Origin: Burkholderiales bacterium
GTDB taxonomy: Bacteria > Pseudomonadota > Gammaproteobacteria > Burkholderiales > SG8-41
Assembly (NCBI GenBank): GCA_050741255.1
Contig: JBOIEQ010000003.1
Span: 2,213 to 66,212, forward strand
Length of the DNA: 64,000 nucleotides
Reading direction: 5' to 3'
Of the stretch, positions 1 through 61,125 are shown in pieces (within the stretch, counting starts at the first letter, position 1; each line of letters starts with the position of its first letter). Under the pieces are notes generated by a model, which did not search any database, was not told where the DNA came from, and was given only the letters and a program-made list of their open reading frames with translations. The position numbers and the translations under genes were made by a program.

Positions 1-910
1 TGCGCTCGGCGCGCATGAATACCTGCGAACCCACGCCCTGGAACATGCGCAGGCCATACGCCAGCTCGAGCCCGAGCATCGGTCCCCACAGCCCCTGGGT
101 TTTCGAGAACTGGTTCATGACGCCGCCGCCGCCGCTCTCGTCGGTGGAGGTGGTGGATTTGGCGCGGCTGTAGGCGAGTCCCGCCATGACGGCGAGTGCC
201 GTGTCCGGCGCCACCGTGAAGCGCATGCCCGCGCCGCCCCGCACGGAGTACTTGATGTCCACCGAGCCGCCGGAATCCAGTCCGGGCGTCGGATGGAAAC
301 TCACGTAGGTCTTGCTTTCATCGGTGTTGTCGCCGATCACACTGGCGAAAAAGAAGACGTTGGCGAGCTGGTTCATGCGGCGCGCGAAGGGATTGACCGT
401 CAGTTCCAGGCCGCCGGTGAAGCCGCCGCCGTTGATGCCGGACGAGGCCGCGCCGAAGGGCGAACTGATACTGTTGTCGCTGTGGGTATAGCTGTAGCCC
501 AGCATGCCGCCCAGCCAGAACATGTTCTGCTGCTGTTGTTGCCTTCCGATGAGCGTGGCCGCGACGAGGGTGGCGACGCCGGTGGCGGTGTCCACGCGAT
601 AGCGGGTGGTTTCGCCATCTTTGACTTCCACGCGCTGGGGCGTGCCAACCTGCTGACCGGCGATGATCGTGCGCAACAGGTAATAGCCGGCGACGCGGTT
701 GCGCCACCACCATAGCCCGCGCCGGCGGTCGCTGTCTTCGTCCTCCTTGAGCTTCTGGCCACTCTTTTCGTCTTCGAGGGTAATGGTGGTCTCCGCGACC
801 TGGGCGCCGGCGCCAGTAACTTCCAAGTTGCCGGTCGCGAACGCGGGTCCCCCGAACAGGAATCCCAGCAGGAGGCCGCAAAGGCCGAGTAAGTGGTGGT
901 GCCGTGTCAT
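1..910 (-). CDS. Exported outer-membrane beta-barrel-like protein; 3' end runs off the left window edge (partial)
   Basis: Absent from the supplied track because there is no stop inside the window. I translated the minus strand by hand from ATG (CAT at 908-910). It reads MTRHHHLLGLCGLLLGFLFGGPAFA/TGNLEVTG, a signal peptide. A short region follows (YYLLRTIIAGQQVGTPQRVEVKDGETTRYRV), then Gly/Ser/aromatic-rich alternating segments (MFWLGGMLGYSYTH, GGFTGGLELTVNPF, DIKYSVRGGAGMRFTV, AGLAYSRA) typical of small OM barrels. The frame stays open to base 2. Confidence 0.6.
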   Translation of the reverse strand, partial: MTRHHHLLGLCGLLLGFLFGGPAFATGNLEVTGAGAQVAETTITLEDEKSGQKLKEDEDSDRRRGLWWWRNRVAGYYLLRTIIAGQQVGTPQRVEVKDGETTRYRVDTATGVATLVAATLIGRQQQQQNMFWLGGMLGYSYTHSDNSISSPFGAASSGINGGGFTGGLELTVNPFARRMNQLANVFFFASVIGDNTDESKTYVSFHPTPGLDSGGSVDIKYSVRGGAGMRFTVAPDTALAVMAGLAYSRAKSTTSTDESGGGGVMNQFSKTQGLWGPMLGLELAYGLRMFQGVGSQVFMRAER

Positions 911-1017
911 GACGCTCCCCTAGCTTGATGGGTCCCGGACGGGACGGGCGGGTGCAGCGGGTGCAACGCGTGAGACCGGTGCGACTTATGCGATGAGCAT
1001 AGCCGCCCGCGGGCGGG

Positions 1018-2415
1018 TCAGCCAAGCTTCAGCACGAATCTGCCCTCTCTTTTCCGGCCGTTGGTGTGCTCGGATACAACACGTACTGTCCAGATTTTTG
1101 CAGTGCGGAAGGTCGACGCCGGGATCTCCGCCAAAATACCCGCCGAAACAGGGGCTTGGAGAGTCGTGCCGACCTTCTGCCAGACACCGGGATTTTCTCC
1201 CTCGCCGATTTCGACGACCGCTTCCTTGAAGCGGTCGGCCGCCGCGGTGCCGCTGACGCGCACGTACTGACCGTCGTCCTTGCGGACTACCCCCAGCGCC
1301 GTGATCCCGGCCTCGACGAAAAACGCCGGATCGGCCGCCAGCGCCGCCTTCGCATCGAGCAGCCCGTAGCCGGTGTTCCCATCCACGCCCGGCTGGTCGA
1401 TGTCGCGGGCGGACTGCAGCAGCATGCGTCGCACCTCGGCCGCAGTCAGGGTCGGGCGTGCGGCGAGGACCAGGGAGGCCACGCCGGTGACGAATGGCGC
1501 GGCGAAAGAGGTGCCGTCCGCGCGGTAGTAGCGGTTCTCCGGCGCGCCGACGAAGTTCGCGCCCGGTTTGTAGCCTTTCACGCCGGCGAACAGCATGAAG
1601 TCGGTCTGCCGCGCGCGCAACGAGAGGATGTCTACTCCGGGTGCCGCGATGTCGATCGCGCCGCCGAAGTTGGAGAAGCCCGCGCGCCGGTCCTGCGGGT
1701 CGGTGGCCGCGACGGTCAACACATTTTCCAGGGAAGCTGGCGAATAGTCCTTCACGTCGCGGCCGTCGTTGCCGGCGGCGGCGATCACCAGGACGCCCTT
1801 GCTCGCGGCGTAATCCACTGCGCGTTTTTCCGACGCCGACAACTGCTGTGACGCAAGACTGAGGTTGATGATTCTCGCGCCGTTCTGGACCGCGTAGTAA
1901 ATCGCCGCCGCCGTGCGCGTGGGATAGTTGCGCCCGATCGAATTCATCACTCGCAGCGGCATGATCTGCACGTTCGGGTTGACCCCCAGCACGCCGGCGC
2001 CGTTCAGCGGCGACGCGACGATGACGCCGGCGACAAACGTGCCATGGCCGGTAAAGTCGAACGGATCGTTGTCGTTGTCGGCAAAGTCCCAGCCGATGAC
2101 GTCGTCCACGTAGCCGTTGCCGTCGTCGTCCTTGCCGTTGACGATTTCCTTCGGATTGCGCCAGACGCTGTCGCCGCGCAGGTCGGGGTGGAAATAATCG
2201 AGTCCGGAATCGATCACGGCGACGATGACGGGCGCGCCCGCGGGTGCCGACGGCGGCGTGGCGCCGAGGCCGATGCGCTTCAGGCCCCACAGATCGTCGT
2301 AGGCCTGGCCCCAAGTGCCGCGGGTGTCGAGGAAGGGCGCCGCGACCAGCGGCAGCGCGCAGGTCAGCAGCAAGACGGCAATGCCGGTCCGGCGCCGGGC
2401 TTCAGGCGTTTTCAT
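1018..2415 (-). CDS. Exported subtilisin-family (S8) serine peptidase with C-terminal extra domain
   Basis: 465 aa. Signal peptide MKTPEARRRTGIAVLLLTCALPLVAAPF. Asp/His/Ser triad motifs VAVIDSGLDYFHPDL, HGTFVAGVI and GTSFAAPFVTGVASL. The ATG overlaps the upstream stop (ATGA at 2412-2415). Confidence 0.9.
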   Translation of the reverse strand: MKTPEARRRTGIAVLLLTCALPLVAAPFLDTRGTWGQAYDDLWGLKRIGLGATPPSAPAGAPVIVAVIDSGLDYFHPDLRGDSVWRNPKEIVNGKDDDGNGYVDDVIGWDFADNDNDPFDFTGHGTFVAGVIVASPLNGAGVLGVNPNVQIMPLRVMNSIGRNYPTRTAAAIYYAVQNGARIINLSLASQQLSASEKRAVDYAASKGVLVIAAAGNDGRDVKDYSPASLENVLTVAATDPQDRRAGFSNFGGAIDIAAPGVDILSLRARQTDFMLFAGVKGYKPGANFVGAPENRYYRADGTSFAAPFVTGVASLVLAARPTLTAAEVRRMLLQSARDIDQPGVDGNTGYGLLDAKAALAADPAFFVEAGITALGVVRKDDGQYVRVSGTAAADRFKEAVVEIGEGENPGVWQKVGTTLQAPVSAGILAEIPASTFRTAKIWTVRVVSEHTNGRKREGRFVLKLG

Positions 2416-5400
2416 CGACTGCCCTGCCCGGTCTCGCGCTGCTGTTGTGCGCGATTCACGGTGACGTTGTTCGGCTTGCCGAAATCGAGCGGCGGCGGTT
2501 GCTTCGCGGCCGTATCGCTTTTCGGGCCCGATGCAGCCACCGGTGGCCCGGGATGGCGGGGGATGCTGAAGCGCGTTTCTTCGCAGACCTGGATGACCGA
2601 CACGGTGCCGCAGCTTCCGCCGCTGTTGACGACGGTACCCGGCGGCGTAGGCTCAAGCGGAATCTGCTCCGCAATCGCCTTTGCCTGCTGCAGGGCCGGA
2701 CCGGGATCCATTCTCTCGGCGCCGATCAGACGCAGATACTCATCCTTCTCCACGAACGCGCGCAGCGACTGCAAGTACGCGCGCTGTTCGCCGGCGAGCC
2801 GCTTGTTGCAGTCCTCGAGCCGCTTCTGCAGTTGCGCGATCTCGTCGAGCGCCTTCTGGATGCGGGGCTCGATGGCACGCAGTTTGGCCAGCCGCGCGCG
2901 GGCATCGACCATGCGGGGGCCGGTCGCTTCGCGACCGTTATAAAAACGCGCGTTATCCGCGTTGTTGGGCGGCGATGCATTCTCGCCGTGCTTCGCACGG
3001 TACTGCAGAAAGTATTCACGGTCACGGGCCATCTCGTCGAGGTTCGTGGCCAGGTCTTTTTCGGTGCCGAGGTGCGCACGGCTGACGCGCATTTCATCGA
3101 TCGCGCGGTGCAGTGCCTCGATGCGGGCGCGGCAGCGGTCGATGCATTTTTCGGTGCTCTTCAAATCGTCCGTGGTCTGTTTCAGGCGGTCGTTTTCGGC
3201 GCGCGTGCCGTTGTAGCGGTTGACCGCATCCGCATCCAGCTTTGACGGCGAAGCGCTCGGCTGCGGACCGCTGGCGGCCGTTTCCGCAGGCACGCGCTCA
3301 CCCGTCAGGTCGACGGTGAAATCGTTGATGTCGCGGATCGTCTGGCCGGTCAGATTCTGGCGCGTCTGTATGGTTTTCAGATCCTGCACCATGTTCTCGA
3401 CGCCCTTGGCATACATGCTGACGAACTCGCCGATGCCTGGCACCTTGCCGGCGATGCCGCCGACGAGATTGAGATACATCGAGAGCGCCTGGGCCGCCTG
3501 CACCGGGTCTTCGCGGCCGCGCTGCGCGGTGTCGAGGAACTCGATGATTTCGCCCGCCTTGCTGATGAGGCCTTCGATCTTTTCTTTCTGCTTGAAGCCT
3601 TTCTCGATGCCGTCGAGTACGCCGCCGAGTTTTTCGAACTTGCCGCCGCGCAGGCCGTTGATCTCGCTGATGAGGCCCTTGACGTCCGATTCCTCGACCG
3701 GCAGGCCGTTCTCATGCTTGTAGTTCAGGTACTCAAGCCGGGTGAGCAGGTTGAAGGCGTTCTGCCCGTACTCCACGCCCTCCTGCACGCGATCGGAATC
3801 GACGGTCTTGAACGAACCGAGGGCGATGCGCTGCGAGAGCGGCAGCGTGCCGCCACCCGCCGGGCAGGCGGAGGCGGGGATCTGGAAACGGCCGCCCGTC
3901 GGCGTCTGCACGCTGGGGCCGCGCGCGTCCTGCGGCTGCCACGGCCGGCCGGTGCCGTCCAGGAAGTTGATGACGTTGCCGTCGGCGTTCGCCGCGCGGT
4001 CGATGACCACGGGCTGCGCGAAGCTCTTGCCCTGCGCGACCTGCGTCTCGACCGGGTTGCGTCCCACCGAACGGACGGCTGACCCGGTGGGCTTGCGGCC
4101 CGGCGCTTCCGGTGCCATCTTGCTGCAGTCCTTTTCCTCGTCGGTCTTGTTGCCTGCGCCCGGCGCCATGCAGGCGTTCCCGCTCTGAGCGCTCTCTCCT
4201 TCAGCACCGCCGCCCGCCCCTTCCGGCACTCGAGTGGCATTGCGAAGGGTGCCGCCGGCGGCCTCGTTGGCGGCGGCCAGGTCCTGGAGTGACCTGGCGG
4301 TCACGTTGCAAGCGGTTATGTCGATGGGGTTCCACACGGCGAATAGCCCTTTGTTCTTGCTGCACAACTCTTGACACTCGCGCACCGCTGCTTCCCACGC
4401 GGACAGCGGGCCTGTCATTTCCTGCCATTCCTTGAACAACTCAGCGTGGCGCGCACGTTCCGCAGCCTGCTTGTCGCCGGCCGTGGTCTTCAAGTTCGTG
4501 TCGATGGTGTCCAGCTGGACCGCCAGCGCGTTCATGCGGAGCGCAATGGCGTTGTGCGTGTCCTCCCGGCGCCGGCACTCGATGTTTTCGCAGATGCCCG
4601 TCACGAAGCGCTTCATCGGCGCCTTTTGCAGAGGCGGGTAACGGCTGATGTCTTCCCGTTTCACAAGCGTATTCCCGTCCTCGTCCTGGAACTGCCAGAA
4701 ATAGGCGTTGCCCTGGGTGTTGAACTGGGCATAGCTGCGTCGCACGCCGCCGCCGGCTGCGGTGTACGTGAGGATGACGGGCAGGCCGTTTGCGTCCAGA
4801 CCCTCTTGATAACGTTTATTCGTGTCGTCCCGGTCGATGCCGTACTTCTTCTCCTGTTCGTCGATCCACAGCATCGACCGGCCCGCCGGCGTGAGCATGT
4901 AGCCCTGCGTGTTGCCGTTGGCGTCGAACCTGATGAAGTGGGTCAGCAGGTAGTAGGTCTCCAGCTTGCCTTTGAGCTCGAACCACTGCACGGCGCCGAT
5001 GATCTTGCCGTCATCGGAGTAGATAAACAGGGGTTCGGCGTAGTGAGCCTTGGTGCCCTCGTGCGGCTTGTTGTCGAGATAGGTCTTCACCTTCTGTTTG
5101 TACGCGGCATTCTCGGCGGCGTGCTTTTCCCGGTTGTCATAACCCGACTTGGAGGAGGCATCCTCAAAAGGTTTGCGGAGCGCCTTGTCGAATTCCTCCT
5201 GCGACATTCCCGGCGGCCGCGGCGGATCGTCCTTGTCCAGCCCGCTGCCGTCTTTGACGCCCTGTGGCGGCGTCTTCGCATCCTTGGTGTAGGACCCGTC
5301 TGGTGCGCTGACTGTCGCATCCCCGCCCTCGTTGGAGACCGTATGCGTGTCCTTCTTTGCATCGGTGTACTGGCCGTCCGCACGTCCGGGGCAGTCGCCT

Positions 5401-5891
5401 TCGCAGAGCCGGGCGTCAAATTCGGAACCCCGAATGCCTATGGTGGAAATGGCCGTATTCAGCCGGTAAGCACCGGTGTTTCCGCGTTTACCGATCTGGC
5501 CGGTGATGGCGCGCAGGCTGCCTTTCAGCAACCGGTAGACGAAGGAGTCGCGTTCAGCGCGGTCCTTCTCGAAGACATAGGCCTCGATCAGCACCCGCCC
5601 GTTGGGCCGGAGAAACACTTCCGCCCCATCGACGAACCGGATGTTGGCGTAAGCGCCGGCGTCGGTCGTGACGGTGTCTCCGTTGGCGACCGGGGTGCCC
5701 TTTTCCGCGCGTTTGAGTTCGCTGCCTGTGGTCTGGACGAAGACGCTGCCGACGACGTGATCGAGCGCGCCGACCGGTCCGCCCTGCGCCCAGAGGGCGC
5801 CGGCGACGAGGAGACCGCCCACGGCCAGCAGCCAGCGCGCGAACGCCGCGCTGATGGTGCCCCGTGTGTTGCGGCGCTGCCCCTTGCCCAT
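2412..5891 (-). CDS. Large exported FecR-domain protein (1159 aa from ATG 5891) with about 1000 aa of uncharacterised Cys-paired/coiled-coil extension
   Basis: Track ORF is 2412..6143. I place the start at the internal ATG (CAT 5889-5891) because GGGAGGGG lies just upstream on the minus strand and a hydrophobic anchor follows (ISAAFARWLLAVGGLLVAGALWAQG). FecR-like region: VGSVFVQTTGSELKRAEKGTPVANGDTVTTDAGAYANIRFVDGAEVFLRPNGRVLIE...LLKGSLRAITG...IGIRGSEFDARL. I recognise no motif in the rest. Confidence 0.75.
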   Translation of the reverse strand: MGKGQRRNTRGTISAAFARWLLAVGGLLVAGALWAQGGPVGALDHVVGSVFVQTTGSELKRAEKGTPVANGDTVTTDAGAYANIRFVDGAEVFLRPNGRVLIEAYVFEKDRAERDSFVYRLLKGSLRAITGQIGKRGNTGAYRLNTAISTIGIRGSEFDARLCEGDCPGRADGQYTDAKKDTHTVSNEGGDATVSAPDGSYTKDAKTPPQGVKDGSGLDKDDPPRPPGMSQEEFDKALRKPFEDASSKSGYDNREKHAAENAAYKQKVKTYLDNKPHEGTKAHYAEPLFIYSDDGKIIGAVQWFELKGKLETYYLLTHFIRFDANGNTQGYMLTPAGRSMLWIDEQEKKYGIDRDDTNKRYQEGLDANGLPVILTYTAAGGGVRRSYAQFNTQGNAYFWQFQDEDGNTLVKREDISRYPPLQKAPMKRFVTGICENIECRRREDTHNAIALRMNALAVQLDTIDTNLKTTAGDKQAAERARHAELFKEWQEMTGPLSAWEAAVRECQELCSKNKGLFAVWNPIDITACNVTARSLQDLAAANEAAGGTLRNATRVPEGAGGGAEGESAQSGNACMAPGAGNKTDEEKDCSKMAPEAPGRKPTGSAVRSVGRNPVETQVAQGKSFAQPVVIDRAANADGNVINFLDGTGRPWQPQDARGPSVQTPTGGRFQIPASACPAGGGTLPLSQRIALGSFKTVDSDRVQEGVEYGQNAFNLLTRLEYLNYKHENGLPVEESDVKGLISEINGLRGGKFEKLGGVLDGIEKGFKQKEKIEGLISKAGEIIEFLDTAQRGREDPVQAAQALSMYLNLVGGIAGKVPGIGEFVSMYAKGVENMVQDLKTIQTRQNLTGQTIRDINDFTVDLTGERVPAETAASGPQPSASPSKLDADAVNRYNGTRAENDRLKQTTDDLKSTEKCIDRCRARIEALHRAIDEMRVSRAHLGTEKDLATNLDEMARDREYFLQYRAKHGENASPPNNADNARFYNGREATGPRMVDARARLAKLRAIEPRIQKALDEIAQLQKRLEDCNKRLAGEQRAYLQSLRAFVEKDEYLRLIGAERMDPGPALQQAKAIAEQIPLEPTPPGTVVNSGGSCGTVSVIQVCEETRFSIPRHPGPPVAASGPKSDTAAKQPPPLDFGKPNNVTVNRAQQQRETGQGSR

Positions 5892-6018
5892 GGCCCCTCC
5901 CGGCCGGGAAAGAGCGCGCAATCTAGCACGCCGCGAATTACCCCTCCAATCCCGCGCCGTGGATAATCGGGCCTGCGCGGATTCCTCCCGTCGCCCATCC
6001 ATCGGCCGCCCTCCAGAC

Positions 6019-8145
6019 GTGAGCACATCCAAGACCGCGAAACGGCGTCCGGCAGCCGCGGCCGAAACGCCGGCGGCGCCGGAAACAGGACCGCTCGCCC
6101 GGGTGCCCAAGGGCACGCGCGACAAGCTGGCCAAGCTCGGCATCCGCCGCGCCTTCGACCTCGTCCTCCACCTGCCGCTGCGCTACGATGACGAGACCGA
6201 ACTGCACACCATCCGCGCCGCGCCTCACGGCCGCCACGTGCTCGTCGAGGGCACGGTCACCGACAACGCGGTGAAGTACCGCCCGCGCCGCCAGTTGCTG
6301 GTGACGATCGAGGACGCGAGCGGAGTGGTGATCGCGCGCTTCCTCAACTTCTACCCGAGCCAGGCCAGGCAGCTCGCCCCTGGCGCGCGGGTGCGCCTGT
6401 TCGGCGAAATCCGGCAGGGCTTTTTCGGCGCGGAGATGGTGCACCCGCGCTATCGCATGGTCAGCGAAGACACACCGGTGCCGGAGACGCTGACGCCGGT
6501 GTATCCAACCACCGCGGGGCTCGGTCAGTACCCGCTGCGCAAGCTGATCGAGCAGGCCGTGCGGGAAGAAGCGCTCGACGACACGCTGCCCGCACCATTG
6601 CTGGCGCAACTGGAATTGCCCGCTTTTCAGGACGCGGTGCGTGCCCTGCACTACCCGCCGCCCGACGCCAGCGCGCCGGCGCTCGAGGCGCGCACCACGG
6701 CCGCGTGGCGCCGGGTCAAGTTCGATGAATTGCTCGCGCAGCAGTTGTCGATGCGCCGGCACCGCGAACACCGGCGGCGCGTGCGCGCGCCGGTACTGCG
6801 CAACGCCGATGGTGATCACACTCGCGCGCTGCTGGCCGCGCTGCCATTTACGCTCACCGCCGCGCAACAGCGGGCATGGGGCGAGATCGCGCACGATCTG
6901 GCCGTGCCGCACCCGATGCAGCGCCTGCTACAGGGCGACGTCGGCAGCGGCAAGACGGTGGTGGCCGCGCTCGCCTGCCTGCGCGCCGTCGAGGCCGGTT
7001 ATCAGGCGGCCGTGATGGCGCCGACCGAAATTCTCACCGGCCAGCACTACGCCAAGTTCGCCGCGTGGCTGGAACCGCTCGGCATCCGCGTCGCCTGGCT
7101 GTCGGGCGCGGCGCCCGTGCGCGAGAAGCGCGCCGCGCTCGCGGCGGTGGCCAGCGGCGAGGCGCAGGTGGCGGTCGGCACTCACGCGCTGTTCCAGGAC
7201 AAGGTGGAATTCGCGAAGCTGGGGCTGGCCGTCATCGACGAACAGCACCGCTTCGGCGTCCACCAGCGGCTTGCGTTGCGCGCGAAGGGTTCAGCCGGCG
7301 CGGTACAACCGCACCAGCTGATGATGAGCGCCACGCCGATCCCGCGCACGCTGGCGATGAGTTATTACGCCGATCTCGACGTCTCCGCGATCGACGAACT
7401 GCCGCCCGGTCGCACGCCGGTGGCGACGCGTTTGGTGTCCAACGCACGCCGTCCGGAAGTGCTCCAGCGCGTGCGCGATGCCTGCCTCGGCGGCGCGCAG
7501 GCGTACTGGGTCTGCCCGCTGATCGAGGAATCCGAAACGCTGCAGCTCGAAACCGCGCTGGCGACCCACGCGCATCTGCAGGAGACCTTCCCGGAACTCC
7601 GGGTGGGGCTGGTGCACGGGCGCCTGCCCGCCGCGGAGAAAGCGGCGGTGATGCAGGCTTTCCAGTCCGGCGCGCTGCAGTTGCTGGTCGCCACCACGGT
7701 GATCGAGGTCGGCGTGGACGTGCCCAACGCGAGCCTGATGGTGATCGAGAACGCCGAGCGCATGGGGCTCTCGCAACTGCACCAGCTGCGCGGACGGGTC
7801 GGCCGCGGCGCTACGGCCAGCGCCTGCATCCTGCTCTACCAGAATCCGCTCACGCCGATGGCGCGCGAGCGGCTAAAGATCGTGTTCGAGAACATCGACG
7901 GCTTCGAGGTCGCGCGCCACGACCTGCGCCTGCGCGGGCCGGGCGAACTGCTGGGCGCCCGCCAGAGCGGGGTGCCGATGCTGCGCTTCGCGGATCCCGA
8001 AGCCGATCTCGACCTGCTGGAGGCGGCCCGCGCGGCGGCGGTCAGCCTGCTCGCGGCGGGCGGCAGCGGGCGGACGCGCGCCGACGACGCGGAACGGCAC
8101 CTCGAACGCTGGCTCGGCAGCCGCGAGGAACTGTTGCGGGCGTGA
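6019..8145 (+). CDS. recG: ATP-dependent DNA helicase RecG
   Basis: Walker A GDVGSGKT, motif II VIDEQHRFGV, HQLRGRVGRG, and the wedge-domain region LPLRYDDET. The track ORF starts at 5854, but that would overlap the divergent gene start. In-frame GTG at 6019 gives 708 aa. The start remains uncertain. Confidence 0.88.
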   Translation: MSTSKTAKRRPAAAAETPAAPETGPLARVPKGTRDKLAKLGIRRAFDLVLHLPLRYDDETELHTIRAAPHGRHVLVEGTVTDNAVKYRPRRQLLVTIEDASGVVIARFLNFYPSQARQLAPGARVRLFGEIRQGFFGAEMVHPRYRMVSEDTPVPETLTPVYPTTAGLGQYPLRKLIEQAVREEALDDTLPAPLLAQLELPAFQDAVRALHYPPPDASAPALEARTTAAWRRVKFDELLAQQLSMRRHREHRRRVRAPVLRNADGDHTRALLAALPFTLTAAQQRAWGEIAHDLAVPHPMQRLLQGDVGSGKTVVAALACLRAVEAGYQAAVMAPTEILTGQHYAKFAAWLEPLGIRVAWLSGAAPVREKRAALAAVASGEAQVAVGTHALFQDKVEFAKLGLAVIDEQHRFGVHQRLALRAKGSAGAVQPHQLMMSATPIPRTLAMSYYADLDVSAIDELPPGRTPVATRLVSNARRPEVLQRVRDACLGGAQAYWVCPLIEESETLQLETALATHAHLQETFPELRVGLVHGRLPAAEKAAVMQAFQSGALQLLVATTVIEVGVDVPNASLMVIENAERMGLSQLHQLRGRVGRGATASACILLYQNPLTPMARERLKIVFENIDGFEVARHDLRLRGPGELLGARQSGVPMLRFADPEADLDLLEAARAAAVSLLAAGGSGRTRADDAERHLERWLGSREELLRA

Positions 8146-11072: not shown

Positions 11073-11127
11073 AAAAAAAAGCCGGGGGCGACCCGGCTGT
11101 GTTCAAGAGCGGCGCAGCTTTTTCGTT
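11073..11127. terminator. Compound terminator region: GCCGGG-GGCGA-CCCGGC hairpin with an A8 tract on its left, plus an overlapping second hairpin followed by TTTTT
   Basis: Read on the minus strand, the first hairpin is followed by T8 (complement of 11073-11080), a canonical intrinsic terminator. On the plus strand, GCTGTG(11096-11101)...CGCAGC(11113-11118) is followed by TTTTTCGTTT and could terminate ubiD. Confidence 0.65.
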
Positions 11128-11367
11128 TAGCAATTAGTGCTGGGCCTGCTGTGTTACTGCGTTGCTTTGTTGCTACGAGCTTGATCAGCTGAGATTCCGG
11201 TTCACAGGGCACAGCCCCGGTAGAGAATCGTTCGCCAATCAATCCGTTGGAATCAGATTAAAGAATTCACTTTAAGTTGTCGAGATAACTGTCCGTCTAT
11301 TTGTGCGATTTTTCGGGCAGTGTTGTAGTTCTGCAACTACAAGATAACAATCTGATTTATAAAGAAA

Positions 11368-11410
11368 TACGGCCATCTCCACAGCCTGAAGGCTGAGCGA
11401 TGGCCGCAGA
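11368..11410 (-). terminator. Intrinsic terminator of the OMP gene
   Basis: Minus strand just after the stop at 11416: CGGCCATCgctCAGCCttcaGGCTGtggaGATGGCCG, followed by TATTTCTTTAT. Confidence 0.7.
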
Positions 11411-11415
11411 CGGGA

Positions 11416-12030
11416 TCAGAATTTCCAGAGAATCTGGGCGTTGAAAAAGTCGACGTCCGTTTTCCCGGTCGTGGTGCCCGAGCCCATGTCGCCGTAGCGC
11501 TCGTATTCCCCGCGGACCGCGATGTTTTTGGTGAAGTCGTACTGGGCGCCGACGCCCAGTTTCCAGCCCATGCCCTGGTCGCGGACGTTGATCACGCCCG
11601 AGCTCGTCGAGTCGGTCGTGTAGTAGGTCGCACCGACCTTCCCGTACAGCCCGAAGTTCGTCATCACCGGCAGCTTCCCGATCACGTCCCAGTACCACAC
11701 GTCGATCTTGAGGTTGGTGAAAACGACCGTCGGTGTGGCGTTGGTGGACGTCATGCCGTACTTGCCGAGGTTCGCATAGCCGAACTCAAAGCCGAGGTTC
11801 TGGTTGAGGTCGTAGCCGAGAAACAGCTTCCAGGCCATGTCGTCGTCGTCGTTCACCGCGGTGCTGGTGGGTACGCCCAAGGCGATCGTCAGGTTGCCGG
11901 CCGTGGCATTCGGATCCACGCTGCCATGCACGTAACCGCCGCCCGCGCCGACATAGAACTGCGCGTAGGCACCGCTGGCGACCAACATCGTCGCCGCCAG
12001 AGTCATTTGAAGCCATGTCTTAACTTTCAT
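11416..12030 (-). CDS. Small outer-membrane beta-barrel protein (OmpA-like barrel / OmpW-X type)
   Basis: Start at the internal ATG (CAT 12028-12030), 6 nt after AGGAGG. Signal peptide MKVKTWLQMTLAATMLVASGAYA/QFYVGAGGGY. Alternating aromatic/Gly strands. C-terminal ...AQILWKF (terminal Phe). Confidence 0.8.
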   Translation of the reverse strand: MKVKTWLQMTLAATMLVASGAYAQFYVGAGGGYVHGSVDPNATAGNLTIALGVPTSTAVNDDDDMAWKLFLGYDLNQNLGFEFGYANLGKYGMTSTNATPTVVFTNLKIDVWYWDVIGKLPVMTNFGLYGKVGATYYTTDSTSSGVINVRDQGMGWKLGVGAQYDFTKNIAVRGEYERYGDMGSGTTTGKTDVDFFNAQILWKF

Positions 12031-12246
12031 GTGCATCCTCCTGAAACAAATAGGGGAAAATACTGCAGCTTGATCATATCTCGAAACTGCCTCAATTTTC
12101 ACCTACAAGCACATGAATTTATTGAAAAGATTGTTTACCTGTGTTGTAAAGTCACAACGCCCACCATTAATTAGTGATTAAAAACAGTCACTTGACTTAT
12201 AGCCCGAAAAATACGGGATGACCCGGGAGACGACCCCCGTACGGGA

Positions 12247-49331: not shown

Positions 49332-50314
49332 AGCAGGAGGAATTCGAACGCGCGCATGCGCCGCTGTGGCGCGCGTTCGAGGCGTGGCTGGCGCGCGACG
49401 CGCTCGGGTCCGGCGCGGGCCCCGCGCCGCCGGATGCGCTGGCCGACGGCGCGGTGCCGCAGCGTTACCGGGTGCTCTGCCAGCACCTGGCGCTCGCCCG
49501 CGACCGCGGCTACAGCGCCGATCTTGTCGAGCGGTTGAACCAGCTCGCGCTGCGCGGCCATCGCCTGCTCTACGGCACGCGCGTGGAAGCGGGCAACCGC
49601 GTCCTCGACTTCATCACCGACGGCTTTCCGCGCGCGGTGCGCGCGGAGCGCCGCTTCGCCGCCGCCGCCGCGCTGCTCCTGTTCGGGCCTTTCCTGCTGC
49701 TGATCGTGGCGCTGGGCCCGTATCCGGACCTCGTGTACTACTTCATCCCGCCGGCCGAGGTCGCGAAGTACGAGGAGATGTACAGCCCGACCGCCGAGCA
49801 TCTCGGCCGCACGCGTTCGGCCGATTCCGCGTTCTACATGTTCGGCATCTACATCTGGAACAACGTGCGGATCGGCTTCCAGACATTCGCCGGCGGCCTC
49901 GTGTTCGGTCTCGGCGCCGTGCTCGCGCTGGTCTTCAACGGCATCGCGCTCGGCGCGGTGGCGGGTCATCTCACGCATGCGGGCTACGCGCTGACGTTCT
50001 GGACCTTCGTCTCCGGCCACAGTGCGTTCGAGCTGACGGCAATCGCGCTGTCGGGCGCGGGGGGGCTGCGCCTGGGCGCTGCACTGGTCGCGCCGGGGCG
50101 GCTCTCGCGCAAGGCGGCGCTGGTCGCGGCCGCGCACCGTGCGGGCCCGGTCGTCTACGGCGCCGCGGGCATGCTGGTGCTCGCCGCGGTGATCGAGGCG
50201 TTCTGGTCCTCGGTGACCACGCTGGCCCCGCAGCTCAAGTGGGGCGTCGGCGCCGTACTGTGGGTGCTGACGCTCGCCTACTTCACGTTCACGGGGCGCC
50301 GCCGTGGATCTTGA
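49328..50314 (+). CDS. SpoIIM-like (DUF95) membrane protein
   Basis: TTG start overlapping the RDD stop (TTGA), in frame with track ORF 48728..50314. IWNNVRIGFQTFAGGLVFGLGAVLALVFNGIALGAV...GHSAFELTAIALSGAGGLRLG. Confidence 0.6.
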   Translation: MKQEEFERAHAPLWRAFEAWLARDALGSGAGPAPPDALADGAVPQRYRVLCQHLALARDRGYSADLVERLNQLALRGHRLLYGTRVEAGNRVLDFITDGFPRAVRAERRFAAAAALLLFGPFLLLIVALGPYPDLVYYFIPPAEVAKYEEMYSPTAEHLGRTRSADSAFYMFGIYIWNNVRIGFQTFAGGLVFGLGAVLALVFNGIALGAVAGHLTHAGYALTFWTFVSGHSAFELTAIALSGAGGLRLGAALVAPGRLSRKAALVAAAHRAGPVVYGAAGMLVLAAVIEAFWSSVTTLAPQLKWGVGAVLWVLTLAYFTFTGRRRGS

Positions 50315-51833
50315 GCGCCTCGCCCTGCAACTGCGCCCGCGCAATCCGTGGGAGGCGATGGACCTCGGCGCAGCGATGCTGCGAGAATGGTGGCAGCCGG
50401 TCTACGGCGCGTGGTTCGCGGTGTACGGGCCGGCCGTCGTGCTGCTGCACCTCGTCTTCACCGCGCATCCCGCGCTCGCGCTGCTCGCGCTGTGGTGGCT
50501 GAAGCCCGCGTTCGACCGCATCGTGCTGCACGTGGCCGCCGGCAGCGTGTTCGGCGCGTCGCCCGCCGTGCGCGACACCGTGCGCGGCTACTTCCGCTAC
50601 GCCGGCCGCGGGCTGTTCGCGTCGCTGACCTACTACCGCTTCGATCTCGCGCGGTCGTTCAATCTGCCGGTGTGGCAACTGGAGGGGCTGCGCGGCGCGC
50701 CCGCGCGCAAGCGCGCGCAGGCGCTGCACAGGCGCGCCCGCGGACACGCCGTGTGGCTGACGCTGATTTGCGCGAATTTCGAGCTGGTGCTGTTCTTCTC
50801 TCTCATCGGCCTGCTGGCGATGGTGACGCCGGCGCACGCCGGCGAGCAGTGGGGCTGGGCGGCCTTCTTCCTCGGCCGGGACGATCTGCCGCTGTGGCGC
50901 GTCATCGTCGAACACGCGTGTTACCTGCTGGCCGTGTCCATCGTGGAGCCTCTCTACGTGACCGCCGGTTTCGCGTTGTATCTCAACCGGCGCACGCAAC
51001 TGGAGGCCTGGGACGTGGAGCTGCAGTTGCGCCGGCTGGAGGCGGCCCCCGGACGGTCCGCGCCGCTGCGCCAGGCGGCGGCGGTGGCGGTGCTCGCACT
51101 CGTCCTCGGCTGGAGCGCGACGCCGTGGCCCGTGTTCGCCGCAGAACCGCCCCCGGCGACGCCGGCCGGCGAGGCGGCGCGCGAGGTGCTCAAGGACCCC
51201 GCGTTCGAACAATGGAAAGACAACACGGGCTGGCGCTACGTCGGGCCGGGTCTCGGCGGCGAGGAATCCAGGCGGGAGCCGCGCAAGTCTGCCGACACCG
51301 ACTGGAGCGGCCTGATCAATGGCATCGCCGAGCTGCTCCGCCTCCTGGCGTGGGCCGCCGGCGCCGCCGCCATTGCGTGGCTGCTGTGGATCGTCGCGCG
51401 CTATGCGGGGCTCGCCCGCGGCGGCTGGCGGGAGGGTTACCGGCCGCCGGATGCGCTGTTCGGGCTCGACCTGCGGCCCGAGTCGCTGCCCGATGACGTG
51501 CCCGGCACGGCCGCGGCGCTGATGCGCGAGGGCCGGCTGCGCGAGGCGCTCGCGCTGCTCTACCGCGGGGCACTGGTGAAGCTCGTGCACGTGCGTCACG
51601 TGGAGATCGCCGCCGCCGATACCGAAGGCGATTGCGTGCGCCGCGTGAGCGCCGCCACCCCGGGCGCCACCGCGCAGTACTTCGCGCGGCTGGTGGGCGT
51701 GTGGCAGGGCGCGGCCTATGCGAACCGCCTGCCGCCGCCCGCCGATGCCGAGGCGCTCGCGCGCGAGTGGGCGGCGGCCTTCGCGCCCGAGACCGCGCCC
51801 GGTACGGCCACGCCGAACGGCCCGTCCGCATGA
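50304..51833 (+). CDS. Polytopic membrane protein with DUF4129-like C-terminal domain
   Basis: GTG start overlapping the upstream gene by 11 nt. Several TM segments, then a soluble tail ...GRLREALALLYRGALVKLVHVRHVEIAAADTEGDC.... Confidence 0.55.
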   Translation: MDLERLALQLRPRNPWEAMDLGAAMLREWWQPVYGAWFAVYGPAVVLLHLVFTAHPALALLALWWLKPAFDRIVLHVAAGSVFGASPAVRDTVRGYFRYAGRGLFASLTYYRFDLARSFNLPVWQLEGLRGAPARKRAQALHRRARGHAVWLTLICANFELVLFFSLIGLLAMVTPAHAGEQWGWAAFFLGRDDLPLWRVIVEHACYLLAVSIVEPLYVTAGFALYLNRRTQLEAWDVELQLRRLEAAPGRSAPLRQAAAVAVLALVLGWSATPWPVFAAEPPPATPAGEAAREVLKDPAFEQWKDNTGWRYVGPGLGGEESRREPRKSADTDWSGLINGIAELLRLLAWAAGAAAIAWLLWIVARYAGLARGGWREGYRPPDALFGLDLRPESLPDDVPGTAAALMREGRLREALALLYRGALVKLVHVRHVEIAAADTEGDCVRRVSAATPGATAQYFARLVGVWQGAAYANRLPPPADAEALAREWAAAFAPETAPGTATPNGPSA

Positions 51834-52957
51834 CCCGGAACCGCCTCATTTCGGCCGTGCTGTGCGTGCTCCTCGCGTGGGCCGCGTACTGGTTCGCCAC
51901 GCGTTTCGCGCGCGTGACCGAGCGCGAGCATGTGGGATTCCAGGGCGAGGCGCTCGAGGATCCGCTGCTCGCGGCGGGCCGGGTCGCGCGCAAGCTGGGA
52001 CTGCCCGCGCAGCGGTTGGCCAGCACCGCCCAGCTGCAGTCCGTGCCCGCCGACGCCGTGCTGGTGCTGGCGGACCGTCGCGCCATGACGCCGCAATTCG
52101 CGGAACGGCTGCTCGCGTGGGTGGAGCGCGGCGGCCATCTCGTCACGGTCGGCATACCCGGGGACGACGACGATCCGCTGCTCGATGCGCTCGGCATCCG
52201 CCGCGAGTGGGCCAAGGGCAACCTGCAGACGCTTTACGAACTGCAACTGGCGAAGGGCGAACGGCCGCTGCGGATGCAGTTGCGGGAGCGTACGACCCGC
52301 ATGCGGTTTTCGGAAAAGGACCCGCGCGCCGTGTTCACGGTGGTCGACAGGGCCGGCATGGCGTGGCTGCTGCATACCCGGGTGGGCGGTGGCGCGGTGA
52401 CGCTGCTGCCGGGACTGGGCTTCGCCACCAACGGCGAACTCGGCAATTTCGACCACGCCGAGGCGTTCTGGCAGCTCGTCAACCTCCAGTCCGGCCGCCG
52501 CGCGCTGTGGACGGCCACGCGCCTCGAAACACCGTCGCTCACGCGCTGGATCGGCGAACACGCGCTTGGCGCGGCCGGCGTCGCGCTGGTGCTGCTGCTG
52601 TTCTGGCTGTGGCGCGTGGTGCCGCGCTTCGGGCCGGTCGCGCCGGACCCGATGCCCGCACGGCGGCGCCTGCTCGACCACCTGCGCGCGGCCGGACGGT
52701 TTCACTGGCGGCGCGAAGGCTCGCCCGGACTCCTGCATGCCGCGCGCGAAGCCAGTCTGCGGCGACTCGCCCGCGTGCATCCTGATCTCGCCGCATTGAC
52801 ACCCACCGACCGCGCGCGCGAAGCGGCGGCGCGTACCGGGTTGTCGGCGGACGCCGCGCGCATCGCCTACGAGCTCCCCGCGGTGGACACCCGCGAATTC
52901 ACCGCGGCGGTGAGCGCGTTGCAGACCTTCGAGGAACGGCTGAATCGCCGCGCGTAG
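51830..52957 (+). CDS. DUF4350-like membrane-anchored protein
   Basis: ATGA overlap with the upstream stop. N-terminal anchor LISAVLCVLLAWAAYWFA; VLVLADRRAMTPQFAERLLAWVERGGHLVTVG; second TM ALGAAGVALVLLLFWLW. Confidence 0.55.
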   Translation: MTRNRLISAVLCVLLAWAAYWFATRFARVTEREHVGFQGEALEDPLLAAGRVARKLGLPAQRLASTAQLQSVPADAVLVLADRRAMTPQFAERLLAWVERGGHLVTVGIPGDDDDPLLDALGIRREWAKGNLQTLYELQLAKGERPLRMQLRERTTRMRFSEKDPRAVFTVVDRAGMAWLLHTRVGGGAVTLLPGLGFATNGELGNFDHAEAFWQLVNLQSGRRALWTATRLETPSLTRWIGEHALGAAGVALVLLLFWLWRVVPRFGPVAPDPMPARRRLLDHLRAAGRFHWRREGSPGLLHAAREASLRRLARVHPDLAALTPTDRAREAAARTGLSADAARIAYELPAVDTREFTAAVSALQTFEERLNRRA

Positions 52958-52993
52958 CGGCTTATCCCTGTTGCAAACGATCCAGGAAGAACC

Positions 52994-53971
52994 ATGACGA
53001 CACCGACCGCAGAACAATTCCAGCAGGCCACCCGCGCGGCAACCGCCATGCGCACCGAGATTGCCAAGGCGCTGGTCGGCCAGGACGAGATCGTCGAGCA
53101 CACGCTGGCGGCACTGCTCGCCGCGGGCCACGTGCTGATCGAGGGCGTGCCCGGCCTCGGCAAGACGCTGCTCGTGCGGGCACTCGCGCGCACCTTTGAC
53201 GGCAAGTTCGCGCGCATCCAGTTCACGCCGGATCTTATGCCGGCCGACGTCACGGGCCACACGCTCTACGACCAGGCCGCGCACCAGTTCGTGACGCGGC
53301 GCGGGCCGGTGTTCACCAACCTGCTGCTCGCCGACGAGATCAACCGCGCGCCTGCCAAGACACAGGCCGCGCTGCTGGAGGTGATGCAGGAAGGGCAGGT
53401 CACGATCGAGGGCGAGTCCCAACTGCTCGAGCCGCCGTTCATGGTGCTCGCCACGCAGAACCCGATCGAGCACGAGGGCACCTACGCGCTGCCGGAAGCG
53501 CAGCTCGACCGCTTTTTGCTCAAGGTGAAGATTGTCTACCCGGATGCGCAGCAGGAAGCGGCGCTCGTGCGGCAGGTGACCACCGGCACCGTCGGCGAGA
53601 AACTCAACGTCGACGCGGTCGCCCCGCTGCTGAAGCCCGCGCAGGTGCTCGCGCTGCAACAGATCACCGCCGGCGTGCGGGTGGACGACGCGGTGCACGA
53701 CTACGCCGTGCGCATCGTGCGCGCGACGCGGACGTGGAACGGTGTCGCCTCCGGCGCGGGGCCGCGCGGCGGCATCGCGCTCGTACGTGCCGCCCGTGCG
53801 GTGGCGCTCCTCGGCGGCCGCGATTTCGTGACGCCGGACGACGTGAAGCGCATGGCGCTGCCGGCCCTGCGCCACCGGGTGACGCCCGCGCCGGAGCTGG
53901 AAATCGAGGGCCAGGACGCCGACGCGATCCTGGCGGCGCTGCTGGCGCGCGTCGAAGCGCCAAGAACGTGA
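52994..53971 (+). CDS. MoxR-family AAA+ ATPase
   Basis: 325 aa. Walker A GVPGLGKT; Walker B LLADEINRA; ATQNPIEHEGTYALPEAQLDRF. Confidence 0.92.
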   Translation: MTTPTAEQFQQATRAATAMRTEIAKALVGQDEIVEHTLAALLAAGHVLIEGVPGLGKTLLVRALARTFDGKFARIQFTPDLMPADVTGHTLYDQAAHQFVTRRGPVFTNLLLADEINRAPAKTQAALLEVMQEGQVTIEGESQLLEPPFMVLATQNPIEHEGTYALPEAQLDRFLLKVKIVYPDAQQEAALVRQVTTGTVGEKLNVDAVAPLLKPAQVLALQQITAGVRVDDAVHDYAVRIVRATRTWNGVASGAGPRGGIALVRAARAVALLGGRDFVTPDDVKRMALPALRHRVTPAPELEIEGQDADAILAALLARVEAPRT

Positions 53972-54073
53972 GGGGTGAGGAGAGAGGGGTGAGGGGAAAA
54001 GCTCACAAAGCTGGTTGGTGGGTGGAGAGGGTCAGTCGGTTTCTCCCCTCCCCCCTCACGCCTCACCCCTCAC
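53968..54073. repeat. Imperfect palindromic element with arms made of tandem GTGAGGG heptamers
   Basis: Left arm GTGAGGGGTGAGGAGAGAGGGGTGAGGGGAAAA (it begins inside the moxR stop codon). Right arm TTTCTCCCCTCCCCCCTCACGCCTCACCCCTCAC. G-rich loop of about 40 nt. Confidence 0.75.
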
Positions 54074-54080
54074 CGCAACA

Positions 54081-55388
54081 ATGCTGATCCCTTCCCGCCC
54101 CTTCCTCTGGATCCTCGCCGCGCTGCTGGCGGTTGGCATCGCCGCGGCGTTCGTGCCGGAGATCAAGCTCGCGTGGGCGTTCGCGGCGACGGTGCTGGCG
54201 GTCGGCGCGCTGGGCGACGGGCTCTACGCGGTGAGCGCCCCGCGCCTGTCCGCGCGACGCGTGGTGCCGGGCTCGCTGGCGCTGGGCGTCTGGCATCCGG
54301 TGCGGCTGCGGCTGGCGAACGGCGAGCGCAGGGCGCTGACGCTCGTGCTCTACGACCACCACCCGGCGCCCTTCGAGACGCGCGGACTGCCGCGCGCGGT
54401 GAGGCTGCCGGCCGGCGGCTGGTCGGAGATCGAATACGAGGTGCGGCCGGTCCAGCGCGGCGAGTTCCGCTTTGGCGCGGTGGAGGTGCGCGTGCGTTCG
54501 CCGCTCGCGCTGTGGGTGCGCGCCGCGGACACGGGCGAAGCGTCCCTGACGCGCGTGTATCCGAACTTCGCGGCGATCACGAAGTACGCGCTGCTTGCCA
54601 CCGACAACCGGCTCTCGCAGATCGGCATCCTGCAGCGCCGGCGGCGCGGCGAGGGACTCGACTTCCACCAGTTGCGCGAATGGCGCGAGGGCGACAGCCT
54701 GCGCTCGGTGGACTGGAAGGCGACCTCGCGCACGATGAAGCTGGTGTCGCGCGAGTACCAGGACGAGCGCGACCAGCAGATCGTGTTCCTGATTGACTGC
54801 GGTCGACGGCTCGCCGCGCAGGACGACGACCTGTCGCATTTCGACCACGTGCTCAACTCGGCGCTGCTGTTGTCCTACGTGGCGCTGCGGCAGGGCGACG
54901 CGGTGGGTTTCATGACTTTTGGCGGCGTCGAGCGCTTCATGGCGCCGCGCAAGTCGGCGGCCACGGTCAGCCTGATGCTAAACCAGCTCTACGACCTGCA
55001 GCCGACGCTGGCGTCGAGCGACTATACCGCCGCGGCGCTTGCGCTCACGCTGCGCGTGCGCAAGCGCGCGCTGGTGGTGGTGCTGTCGAACCTGCGCGAC
55101 GAGGATGACGACACGCTCGCGCCCGCGCTGGCGCTGCTGTCGCAGCGGCACCTGGTGATGTTCGCGAGTCTGCGCGAGCACCTGTTGACGCGGGCGCTGG
55201 ACGTGCGCGTGGACAGTTTCGACCGCGCGCTGACGCATGCTTCCGCGGCGCAGTACCTGCGGGCGCGCGAAGTGGCTTTCCGCCGGCTGGGCCAGCGCGG
55301 CGCGACCTGTCTCGACGTCGAACCGCAGCAACTGGCGGTGGCGCTGGTGAACCGCTACCAGGACCTGAAGCGGGCGGGGCGGTTGTAA
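54081..55388 (+). CDS. DUF58-domain protein (MoxR partner, vWA-like fold)
   Basis: ATG at 54081. Two N-terminal TM segments. DFHQLREWREGDSLRSVDWKATSR motif. Confidence 0.85.
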   Translation: MLIPSRPFLWILAALLAVGIAAAFVPEIKLAWAFAATVLAVGALGDGLYAVSAPRLSARRVVPGSLALGVWHPVRLRLANGERRALTLVLYDHHPAPFETRGLPRAVRLPAGGWSEIEYEVRPVQRGEFRFGAVEVRVRSPLALWVRAADTGEASLTRVYPNFAAITKYALLATDNRLSQIGILQRRRRGEGLDFHQLREWREGDSLRSVDWKATSRTMKLVSREYQDERDQQIVFLIDCGRRLAAQDDDLSHFDHVLNSALLLSYVALRQGDAVGFMTFGGVERFMAPRKSAATVSLMLNQLYDLQPTLASSDYTAAALALTLRVRKRALVVVLSNLRDEDDDTLAPALALLSQRHLVMFASLREHLLTRALDVRVDSFDRALTHASAAQYLRAREVAFRRLGQRGATCLDVEPQQLAVALVNRYQDLKRAGRL

Positions 55389-60995: not shown

Positions 60996-61125
60996 GGGGG
61001 TGTTCCTGGAAATCGGACGGGAATCGGCAGCTTGCGGCGATGCTAACACCCACAGCGTACCCGGCGCGGTGCGCGCGTCCGCGTCACCCGCCAGCACCAG
61101 CACCAGCAGCGCATGCGCGACGGGG

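Follow-up and report, generated by a model that had tools for sequence, protein, structure and literature searches.

What is a protein whose public record names one N-terminal domain and leaves some 1000 residues without a recognized family, and where did those residues come from? The question is raised by a large gene in a 64,000-nucleotide stretch (the window) of contig JBOIEQ010000003.1, from a Burkholderiales metagenome-assembled genome, whose product is recorded, on a 72-kb contig, as MGH8616214.1 with only the label 'FecR domain-containing protein'. A sequence-only reading of the window, all of whose quoted peptides we found in the translation of the minus-strand open reading frame (ORF) at 2412–5891, had proposed that the part downstream of the FecR domain (the body) either was acquired horizontally or represents a novel array of extracytoplasmic domains under functional constraint. 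The second description held up: the protein has a Sec-type signal, a conserved Cys pattern and two separable, recurring modules, A and B, that match no known family. We conclude that the body is part of an exported multi-module protein of a rare, undescribed family in which module B is always partnered with a propeptide-less subtilase.

The same reading had found no recognisable motif after the FecR domain, and database searches agreed. Residues 165–1159 matched no Pfam, NCBIfam or PADLOC family, apart from coiled-coil noise, and permissive thresholds together with member-by-member scans of the family alignments again returned only such noise. The NCBIfam matches to the large protein were all sub-threshold and lay in the head region, that is, the signal peptide and the FecR domain. 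PDB sequence and profile searches with the body gave no match, and Foldseek searches of the PDB and BFVD yielded no match covering residues 165–1159.

Relatives are few. A word-indexed search of 5.8 billion proteins returned two full-length homologs, P0001 (69% identity) and P0002 (61%); all other matches were to the FecR head only, in large exported proteins with unrelated bodies, P0003–P0014 matching 9–19% of the query in the head region. A profile hidden Markov model of residues 165–1159, searched exhaustively against 1.84 billion cluster representatives, gave 38 matches, which comprise module-A-only, module-B-only and A-plus-B proteins with varied partner domains. Module A occurs in about 25 representative proteins of 560–1900 residues, mostly directly after the signal peptide and followed by C-terminal parts that vary: one relative bears Big_13-type Ig domains, and in P0047 module A is fused to a complete S8 (subtilisin-family) peptidase. 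Module B is C-terminal in proteins with other N-termini, namely module A (P0032 and P0033), a part without Pfam matches (P0035) or Cys-stapled hairpin repeats (P0036), and P0046 combines FG-GAP repeats with part of module B and further sequence after it. A pattern scan of 185,579 GTDB species-representative genomes, built on alignments A1 and A5 (A4 was too divergent to yield search patterns), found no confirmed relative, and a metagenome scan added two loci, both of the L003 type. Word-index searches with the A3 and A5 alignments gave no match, a result that is uninformative and probably reflects a limit of the word index. Within the window, tblastn detected no paralog of the large protein. 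A literature search for combinations of FecR domain, subtilase and MacB turned up nothing relevant. Besides these modules, P0049, P0057 and P0064 share another unannotated Cys-rich helical motif, DLQAVIDAA..A....C....CPV.DC; in P0064 this motif stands beside a copy of those of the module-B coiled coil (RCIxNTQ.. and ..DCQRRLPGEEQA), which suggests a shuffling of modules across a larger superfamily.

The architecture of the protein, with the genes that follow it, is given in Table 1.

Table 1. Features of the large gene, its product and the two genes downstream of it, in window coordinates (aa, amino acid residues of the product; AF2, AlphaFold2; RBS, ribosome-binding site)
Feature	Position	Strand	Basis and sequence features
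Large gene, complete	2412..5891	minus	1159 codons + stop; ORF, translation, RBS, exact match in protein collection
Sec-type signal peptide, aa 1-35	5787..5891	minus	basic n-region, core WLLAVGGLLVAGALWA, predicted cut after LWA
FecR-type domain PF04773, aa 72-161, conserved 'head'	5409..5678	minus	Pfam E = 1.1e-6, 29.4 bits (cutoff 24)
Linker, aa 162-230	5202..5408	minus	Asp/Lys/Pro/Gly/Thr-rich; D 16.9%, P 12.3%, K 9.2%
Module A, aa 231-520	4332..5201	minus	modelled as two N-terminal helices, ~10-strand beta-hairpin sheet, three long helices
Predicted Cys-stapled helical hairpin in module A, aa 434-520	4332..4592	minus	C434-x4-C439 (CxxC in most relatives) to C506-x3-C510
Conserved region, structure modelled at low confidence, aa 521-698	3798..4331	minus	Gly/Ala/Pro-rich; C528, C574, C589, C676; motif P-x-E-A-G-G-G-x-E
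Module B helical bundle, aa 699-864	3300..3797	minus	AF2 model; conserved in P0030-P0038 and P0046
Helix-Pro-Gly-helix motif, aa 791-835, the family's most conserved	3387..3521	minus	GRxDPVxAAEAxxxYLxLxxxIAGKVPGMGEFVxxYAxxV
Module B long antiparallel coiled coil (modelled), aa 884-1074	2670..3242	minus	C916 (CIxxC), C1028 (LEDCxKRL), motifs conserved in relatives
C-terminal tail, aa 1075-1159	2415..2669	minus	V.V..C-E-E motif (C1103, C1094 nearby), Pro-rich stretch, QPPPxDF motif; alignments A1, A4
S8 (subtilisin-family) peptidase, 465 aa	1018..2415	minus	Pfam Peptidase_S8 E = 1.6e-59
Small outer-membrane beta-barrel protein, 5' part (303 codons)	1..910	minus	translation; signal peptide; runs off window start

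Among the 19-mers of the protein, the most hydrophobic (Kyte–Doolittle hydropathy (KD) 1.81) lies in the signal-peptide segment, and no strongly hydrophobic segment exists other than residues 15–33. The signal peptide is probably cleaved, judging from the sequence, and homolog P0002 has a classical ALA-QAG cleavage site. The LapA retention module NF033682 matched residues 43–105 weakly, at 20.8 bits against a cutoff of 50 and so sub-threshold. The linker opens with C163-x3-C167, both cysteines being invariant among the close homologs. We suggest that outside the anti-sigma context the FecR fold serves as a generic envelope-docking head. Many large exported proteins of 700–1700 residues that are otherwise unrelated (P0003–P0014) begin with a signal peptide and, directly after it, a FecR domain; several of them have Thr/Ala-rich linkers and Gly-rich C-terminal domains.

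Module A carries the motifs FDxxGNxxG and FNxxGxPYxGE..DxDG. Its AF2 model, made from the 23-sequence alignment A3, has a mean predicted local distance difference test score (pLDDT) of 86.7 and places one helix among the roughly ten hairpin strands. Foldseek found nothing in the PDB at E < 1e-3 for this model, the best match being the OspA single-layer β-sheet (TM-score 0.14), and Pfam matched none of 23 module A members. The region that follows is modelled with pLDDT below 50 (residues 520–698), and residues 601–720 are 83–90% identical to P0001 and P0002; its Cys motifs ACxV, GC and CN recur in P0032, P0035 and P0036. Module B spans residues ~699–1110 and is modelled with a mean pLDDT of 59. 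AF2 places bundle helices at residues 699–727, 734–748, 753–765, 772–792, 796–814 and 820–863 (pLDDT 53–76) and coiled-coil helices at 884–941, 944–968 and 991–1057 (pLDDT 76–94). Alignment A5, with 11 sequences, has 22 invariant columns. The conserved Pro-Gly of the helix-Pro-Gly-helix motif lies, in the model, between two bundle helices; the motif is of moderate hydrophobicity here (KD 1.14) and amphipathic or charged in relatives. The C-terminal tail is modelled with low confidence. We also considered whether the stapled hairpin of module A and the coiled coil of module B are homologous repeats, which hhalign did not support (probability 11.7%).

The cysteines are a second mark of constraint. 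Their close pairing, pointed out in the sequence-only reading, is real: among 15 cysteines there are four pairs no more than 5 residues apart, against 0.88 expected (P = 0.007). All 15 are kept in both close homologs, and across the 23 sequences of alignment A3, at ~22% identity, C434, C439 and C510 never vary and C506 is retained in at least 90%. In the AF2 model, cysteines lie at the ends of long predicted helices: the first pair of the module A hairpin falls just before helix 437–467 and the second within helix 493–520, which is the geometry expected of a disulfide-stapled antiparallel helical hairpin. The Cys pairs presumably form disulfides that staple antiparallel helices.

The genomic context of the relatives proved most informative and shows an unusually consistent genetic partner. 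In each of the eight lineages whose module B is complete (the window, L001, L002, L017, the L003 type, which also includes L004, L010 and L011, and L005, L008 and L018), an S8 peptidase gene lies directly downstream, at 0–3 nucleotides or overlapping; in the window its start overlaps the stop codon of the large gene by 4 nucleotides (ATGA). The S8 of L017, whose contig ends after 126 residues of the protein, was identified by its 75% identity to the window S8 and not by Pfam. These peptidases are 45–54% identical across lineages, compared with about 25% for their module-B partners, and by this measure they form one subfamily, to which the S8 part of P0047 (50% identical to the window S8) also belongs. 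The catalytic triad of the window S8 is intact, with D69 (VIDSG), H124 (GHGT) and S303 (GTSFAAP). Pfam detected no I9 propeptide in it, and only about 15 residues separate its signal peptide from the catalytic domain; in this it resembles specific processing proteases, whereas an I9 propeptide is typical of secreted subtilisins.

In several lineages a second partner is found. Genes for MacB_PCD/FtsX, a membrane-fusion protein and OEP lie in or beside the operons of the L003 type, L005, L014, L015/L016 and L018. In the L003 type, L005 and L018 a nearby membrane protein of 242–281 residues accompanies an operon for OEP, membrane-fusion protein, ATP-binding cassette (ABC) ATPase and MacB, and a second S8 gene lies near the pump operon in the L003 type and L005. 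P0039 and P0043, which have module A only, are encoded inside MacB-type pump operons, and two other module-A-only loci, L006 and L012, are without them. P0036, from L005, is a MacB-linked module-B protein that bears only the Cys-stapled hairpins of module A. The partners of the FecR-headed clade differ, being a small outer-membrane protein (OMP) and a 213-residue lipoprotein, and we found no MacB/FtsX-type gene in the operon or among the scanned ORFs of the window. The 242–281-residue accessory protein itself always precedes the OEP, membrane-fusion, ABC and MacB genes (L003 16614–17387, L005 6832–7560, L018 16852–17697), with 64% identity between the copies of L003 and L005. The protein, which matched no family, comprises a signal peptide, a single hydrophobic helix, a linker rich in Ser and Gly and a C-terminal domain rich in Cys; an N-terminal Ig/CarboxypepD_reg-like domain is possible, at sub-threshold scores. 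The idea that the accessory proteins and the window OMP share such an N-terminal CarboxypepD_reg/Ig-like domain drew no more than sub-threshold matches (E 0.002–0.07), and the two show no BLASTP similarity.

We then asked whether the body is foreign, as its composition had suggested to the sequence-only reading, which called it rich in Lys, Asp, Asn and Tyr and, by eye, GC-poor in the middle. The richness exists in some regions (residues 231–430: K 9.0%, D 7.5%, Y 7.0%; residues 701–870: K 7.1%) but is modest protein-wide, the 5.5% K of the whole ORF lying inside the range of the window genes, which extends up to 9.1% for the GroEL gene. Local GC dips exist as well, but as two troughs (4650–5250 at 0.57–0.61 and 3150–3750 at 0.60–0.62, against a window mean of 0.67) and not as one central dip; between them, 3750–4200 reaches 0.71–0.72 and encodes a Gly/Ala/Pro-rich protein segment. 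Only the first and second codon positions (GC1 and GC2) dip, so the troughs are due to amino-acid content. At third positions, GC (GC3) averages 0.82 in the large gene and runs from 0.74 to 0.92 across 100-codon windows, compared with 0.76–0.92 in the other window genes. By leave-one-out likelihood, with the other genes of the window as reference, the synonymous codon choice of the large gene has a log-likelihood 0.067 per codon below expectation, within the range of clearly native genes, ubiA among them, and the deviation is about 0 in residues 226–450, the most Lys/Tyr-rich and lowest-GC part. The sequence-only reading had proposed this very comparison of GC3 and codon usage, and the large gene proved indistinguishable from its neighbours, which removes the compositional argument for horizontal acquisition. 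Nothing in its composition marks the gene as foreign. Recent import from a donor of different composition could account for the local troughs, for the absence of the gene from the GTDB representatives by pattern scan and for the differing flanking genes of the closest homologs, but the GC3 and codon likelihood are those of the neighbourhood, the troughs reflect amino-acid content and a close relative (L017) has a syntenic ortholog; we regard such an import as highly improbable and largely refuted. A second case of a composition-driven GC dip in an exported protein lies nearby: the sharpest GC drop of the first 12 kb (0.46–0.50, at 11100–11400) is upstream of a gene for a 228-residue OmpA-like 8-stranded barrel (11416–12102, minus strand), which is Lys/Asn/Tyr-rich, with a GC1 of 0.51 and a native GC3 of 0.82.

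Comparison with L017 nevertheless points to an exchange of another kind. The L017 protein, P0068 (1181 residues), has the same recG–ubiC synteny as the window gene. Between the two loci, RecG shares 94.6% of its amino acids and 75% of its third codon positions, and a 245-residue fragment of UbiA is 87% identical in amino acids. The large proteins as a whole are only 45% identical (50% at third positions), and the identity is unevenly distributed: 81% over residues 1–80 (79% at third positions), 82% over residues 81–160 (59%), and 23–66%, mostly below 50%, in 80-residue blocks from residue ~160 onwards (35–58%). The FecR domain is about 90% identical in P0068 despite the diverged body. In the body, third-position identity is near the level expected from codon bias alone, synonymous sites thus being near saturation. 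Similarity by blastn to L017 stops at about window position 5434 (about residue 153); the breakpoint would accordingly fall at or just before the linker, a position that is approximate given the few synonymous sites per block. Since saturated synonymous sites lie beside a head at the genomic baseline, the pattern argues for allele replacement and not for fast divergence in place. These sequence comparisons indicate that recombination exchanged the body for that of a long-diverged allele of this family; they do not point to an import of DNA of foreign composition.

The protease co-varies with the body. Over the same 126 residues, the window S8 is 90% identical to that of L002, 81% to that of L001 and 75% to that of L017, and the window protein is likewise closer to P0001 and P0002, which are encoded beside an amino-acid permease gene, than to P0068. 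Between the window and L001 or L002, the S8 peptidases are 85–88% identical and the OMPs, which in L001 and L002 are OMP_b-brl proteins of 340–342 residues at the same position, 42–44%. Judged by these identities, the body and the S8 peptidase are exchanged as a cassette between closely related bacteria. L001 and L017 both come from sample ERZ12298642 and carry two FecR-headed alleles, P0002 beside the permease gene and P0068 beside recG. These alleles may be paralogous loci of one organism, in which case they would be a likely source of cassette exchange.

What does the protein do? The reading that we favour, plausible but still open to considerable doubt, is that it is an exported, disulfide-stapled protein that is matured by its cognate subtilase and acts on the cell surface or beyond it. 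Exported through Sec, the protein would fold in the periplasm, where the paired cysteines would form disulfides stapling antiparallel helices. The FecR-type head would dock it to an envelope partner, likely the small OMP or the lipoprotein of the operon, and modules A and B would be the working body. The subtilase would then cut within a conserved unstructured stretch, residues 162–230 or 521–698, and the cut would set free or activate module B, the helical part, on the surface of the cell or outside it. Exchange of body and protease between strains would fit a strain-specific surface or secreted role, in competition, adhesion or phage interaction. Several points weigh against this proposal. 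Cleavage by the S8 peptidase and action of the product at the surface or outside are steps that we infer, and the docking role of the FecR head is a guess. Gene coupling and co-variation fit a scaffold or regulator of the protease equally well, and enzymes are more typically fused, as in P0047, to domains that target or regulate them than to their substrates. The partial relative P0046 has no S8 gene on its 10-kb contig. The module B model is of moderate quality (mean pLDDT 59, as given above), the candidate cleavage region 520–698 has a pLDDT below 50, and Pfam, NCBIfam and PADLOC searches found no effector-like catalytic or toxin domain in the large protein.

The main rival, which we consider rather unlikely, is that the protein serves the subtilase not as substrate but as a coiled-coil adaptor in the periplasm, tethering it and turning its activity on or off. 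EnvC, PcsB and RipC/RipA provide a precedent: their coiled-coil domains link hydrolases of the cell wall to the MacB-type ABC transporter FtsEX. Like them, the large protein is exported, is associated with a hydrolase gene and is modelled with a long antiparallel coiled coil, here next to a helical bundle, and its relatives are linked to MacB_PCD/FtsX genes; the hydrolase acts on peptidoglycan there, whereas it is a subtilase here. P0047 joins module A and an S8 of the same subfamily in one polypeptide, module-A relatives are linked to MacB_PCD/FtsX operons, and the 4-nucleotide gene overlap suggests matched amounts of both proteins. The N-terminal coiled-coil domain of RipA (6ewy) even ranked second among the Foldseek matches, with a probability of 0.80, but at E = 0.49 the match is not significant. 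A MacB/FtsX-type gene is also missing from the operon and the scanned window ORFs, as it is from the L006 and L012 loci, and the transporters that are linked, with OEP and membrane-fusion protein, resemble tripartite efflux or export pumps and not FtsEX.

Less probable still is that module B is an α-helical pore-forming toxin of the ClyA/XaxAB/MakA/AhlB kind, activated by the subtilase and inserting its helix-Pro-Gly-helix into membranes, an idea that we regard as improbable. MakA, XaxB, SmhB, YaxA, AhlB and AhlC were among the top Foldseek PDB matches to the module-B model, whose elongated, all-helical outline, a helical head with a conserved hairpin beside very long coiled-coil helices, resembles that of the ClyA superfamily (MakA, XaxB, YaxA, AhlB, SmhB); the protein is exported and presumably disulfide-bonded, and the locus shows the hypervariability common among toxin loci. 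But these matches have E values of at least 0.39, TM-scores of at most 0.15 relative to the query and probabilities of at most 0.33, and long-helix models draw non-specific matches, flagellins, MukB and dynein appearing in the same list. ClyA-type toxins insert through a hydrophobic hairpin or β-tongue; module B, itself within a 1159-residue multi-module protein, has neither, its hairpin being insufficiently hydrophobic here and charged or amphipathic in relatives, and we saw no immunity-like gene. The FecR domain, which scores above the Pfam gathering cutoff, might alternatively mark a trans-envelope signalling sensor (anti-sigma or cell-surface signalling) with an unusually long periplasmic extension. 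FecR/PupR anti-sigma regulators share PF04773 with the large protein, but they have an N-terminal cytoplasmic anti-sigma domain and a single transmembrane helix, both of which it lacks, its FecR domain following directly on a cleavable-looking signal peptide. They are also encoded next to a FecI-type extracytoplasmic function sigma factor and a TonB-dependent transducer, whereas the neighbours here are recG, ubiC, ubiA, ubiD, the S8 gene and the small OMP gene. As a signal peptide with a FecR head also precedes many unrelated large exported proteins, we give the sensor very little credence.

A wider proposal, which we put forward as speculative and unlikely to be right, would link the lineages: module A would be the docking or recognition domain of a hitherto unrecognised envelope pathway in which tripartite MacB-type pumps export or mechanically control large Sec-delivered, disulfide-stapled helical proteins; in the Burkholderiales clade the FecR head, OMP and lipoprotein would replace the pump; and module B with the subtilase would be a polymorphic effector cassette traded by recombination. 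Polymorphic toxin and effector systems do combine a conserved N-terminal part with a strain-exchanged, variable remainder, and the large protein is similar in this respect (head 81–82%, body 23–66% identical). They have, however, a recognisable toxin domain and an adjacent immunity gene; neither was recognised here, where the operon partners are the S8 peptidase, the OMP and the lipoprotein.

To return to maturation by a cognate subtilase, exported proteins with a dedicated subtilase are known: Bordetella FhaB is cleaved by SphB1 and mycobacterial EspB by the mycosin MycP1. These pairs are closest to the present one in operating logic, a large exported protein being tied to a specific S8 peptidase, here by gene linkage. 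The window S8 reaches 206.6 bits with the mycosin model TIGR03921, below the cutoff of 278.75. FhaB and EspB have no sequence or fold relation to the large protein, and their secretion context differs from the combination found here of Sec signal, small OMP and lipoprotein, with a MacB-type pump in relatives. Leptospira proteins of the LipL45/Lsa33 type and other FecR-headed exported proteins share the layout of signal peptide, FecR domain and long C-terminal body, but their bodies are unrelated and none of those inspected bears module A or B. LapA-type adhesins are released by a LapG-type (BTLCP) cysteine protease and use a type I secretion system without a Sec signal, unlike the large protein, with its Sec-type signal and S8 partner. 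The protein is therefore not a FecR/PupR anti-sigma regulator, not a LapA-type adhesin and not demonstrably a ClyA-type toxin.

These results turn a bare 'FecR domain-containing' annotation into two new modules with diagnostic motifs and a consistent genetic partnership with one propeptide-less subtilase subfamily and, in some lineages, MacB-type pumps, at a locus that appears to have been replaced as a cassette between near-identical genomes. If the proposed processing is true, the protein would provide a new Gram-negative instance of an exported, disulfide-stapled helical protein that is matured by its own dedicated subtilase, and a route to an envelope or secretion function so far found only in uncultured lineages. 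The finding is a lead for experiments and not a solved mechanism, as sequence alone assigns no biochemical function.

The start of the large gene was assigned as follows. The mechanical ORF list gives a longer frame, from 6143 to 2412; we took the ATG at 5891 as the start. A GGGAGG ribosome-binding site (GGAGG-type) lies 5–9 nucleotides before this ATG, and both close homologs, P0001 and P0002, begin at the matching position. The extension up to 6143 is probably untranslated because it overlaps the start region of recG, which, with ubiC, ubiA and ubiD, lies upstream of the large gene in divergent orientation; as listed mechanically, the ORFs of the large gene (to 6143) and recG (from 5854) overlap on opposite strands at 5854–6143. 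RecG in the syntenic locus L017 has 693 residues (L017 1312–3393), which would place the start of the window recG near 6064 and leave a divergent intergenic gap of about 170 nucleotides (5892–6063). A consensus scan of this gap found no sigma-70-like promoter, and a promoter and terminator scan of 800–6300 gave no count above the expectation from shuffled sequences.

The first two genes of the operon are the large gene and the S8 gene, and the third encodes the small OMP; signal peptides are present on all three products. The Pfam matches of the window OMP are sub-threshold only (Autotransporter beta-domain, 23.1 bits against a cutoff of 26; OMP_b-brl, 20.7 against 28.7). In L001 and L002 the OMP gene is followed by that of the 213-residue lipoprotein, and the corresponding position of our contig falls outside the window. 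The L001 fourth-gene product carries a lipobox, and it matched nothing in Pfam, NCBIfam or the PDB. We had considered that this lipoprotein might be a LapG-like transglutaminase-fold protease, an idea that was dropped, the same three databases giving no support.

Two regions farther along the window deserve mention. On the plus strand, 50304–55388 encodes a DUF4129 protein (50304–51833), a 325-residue ORF (52994–53971) and a DUF58 protein (54015–55388), and this cluster resembles a MoxR/DUF58/transglutaminase-type operon. An apparent codon-usage outlier, the plus-strand ORF 60412–61794 (z = -11), was rejected as a wrong-strand artefact of GC3-based gene calling; the real gene is on the minus strand at 59907–61169, and its product looks patatin-like, judging from a GxSxG motif; it bears the motifs GGGSQ and G-T-S-G-G.

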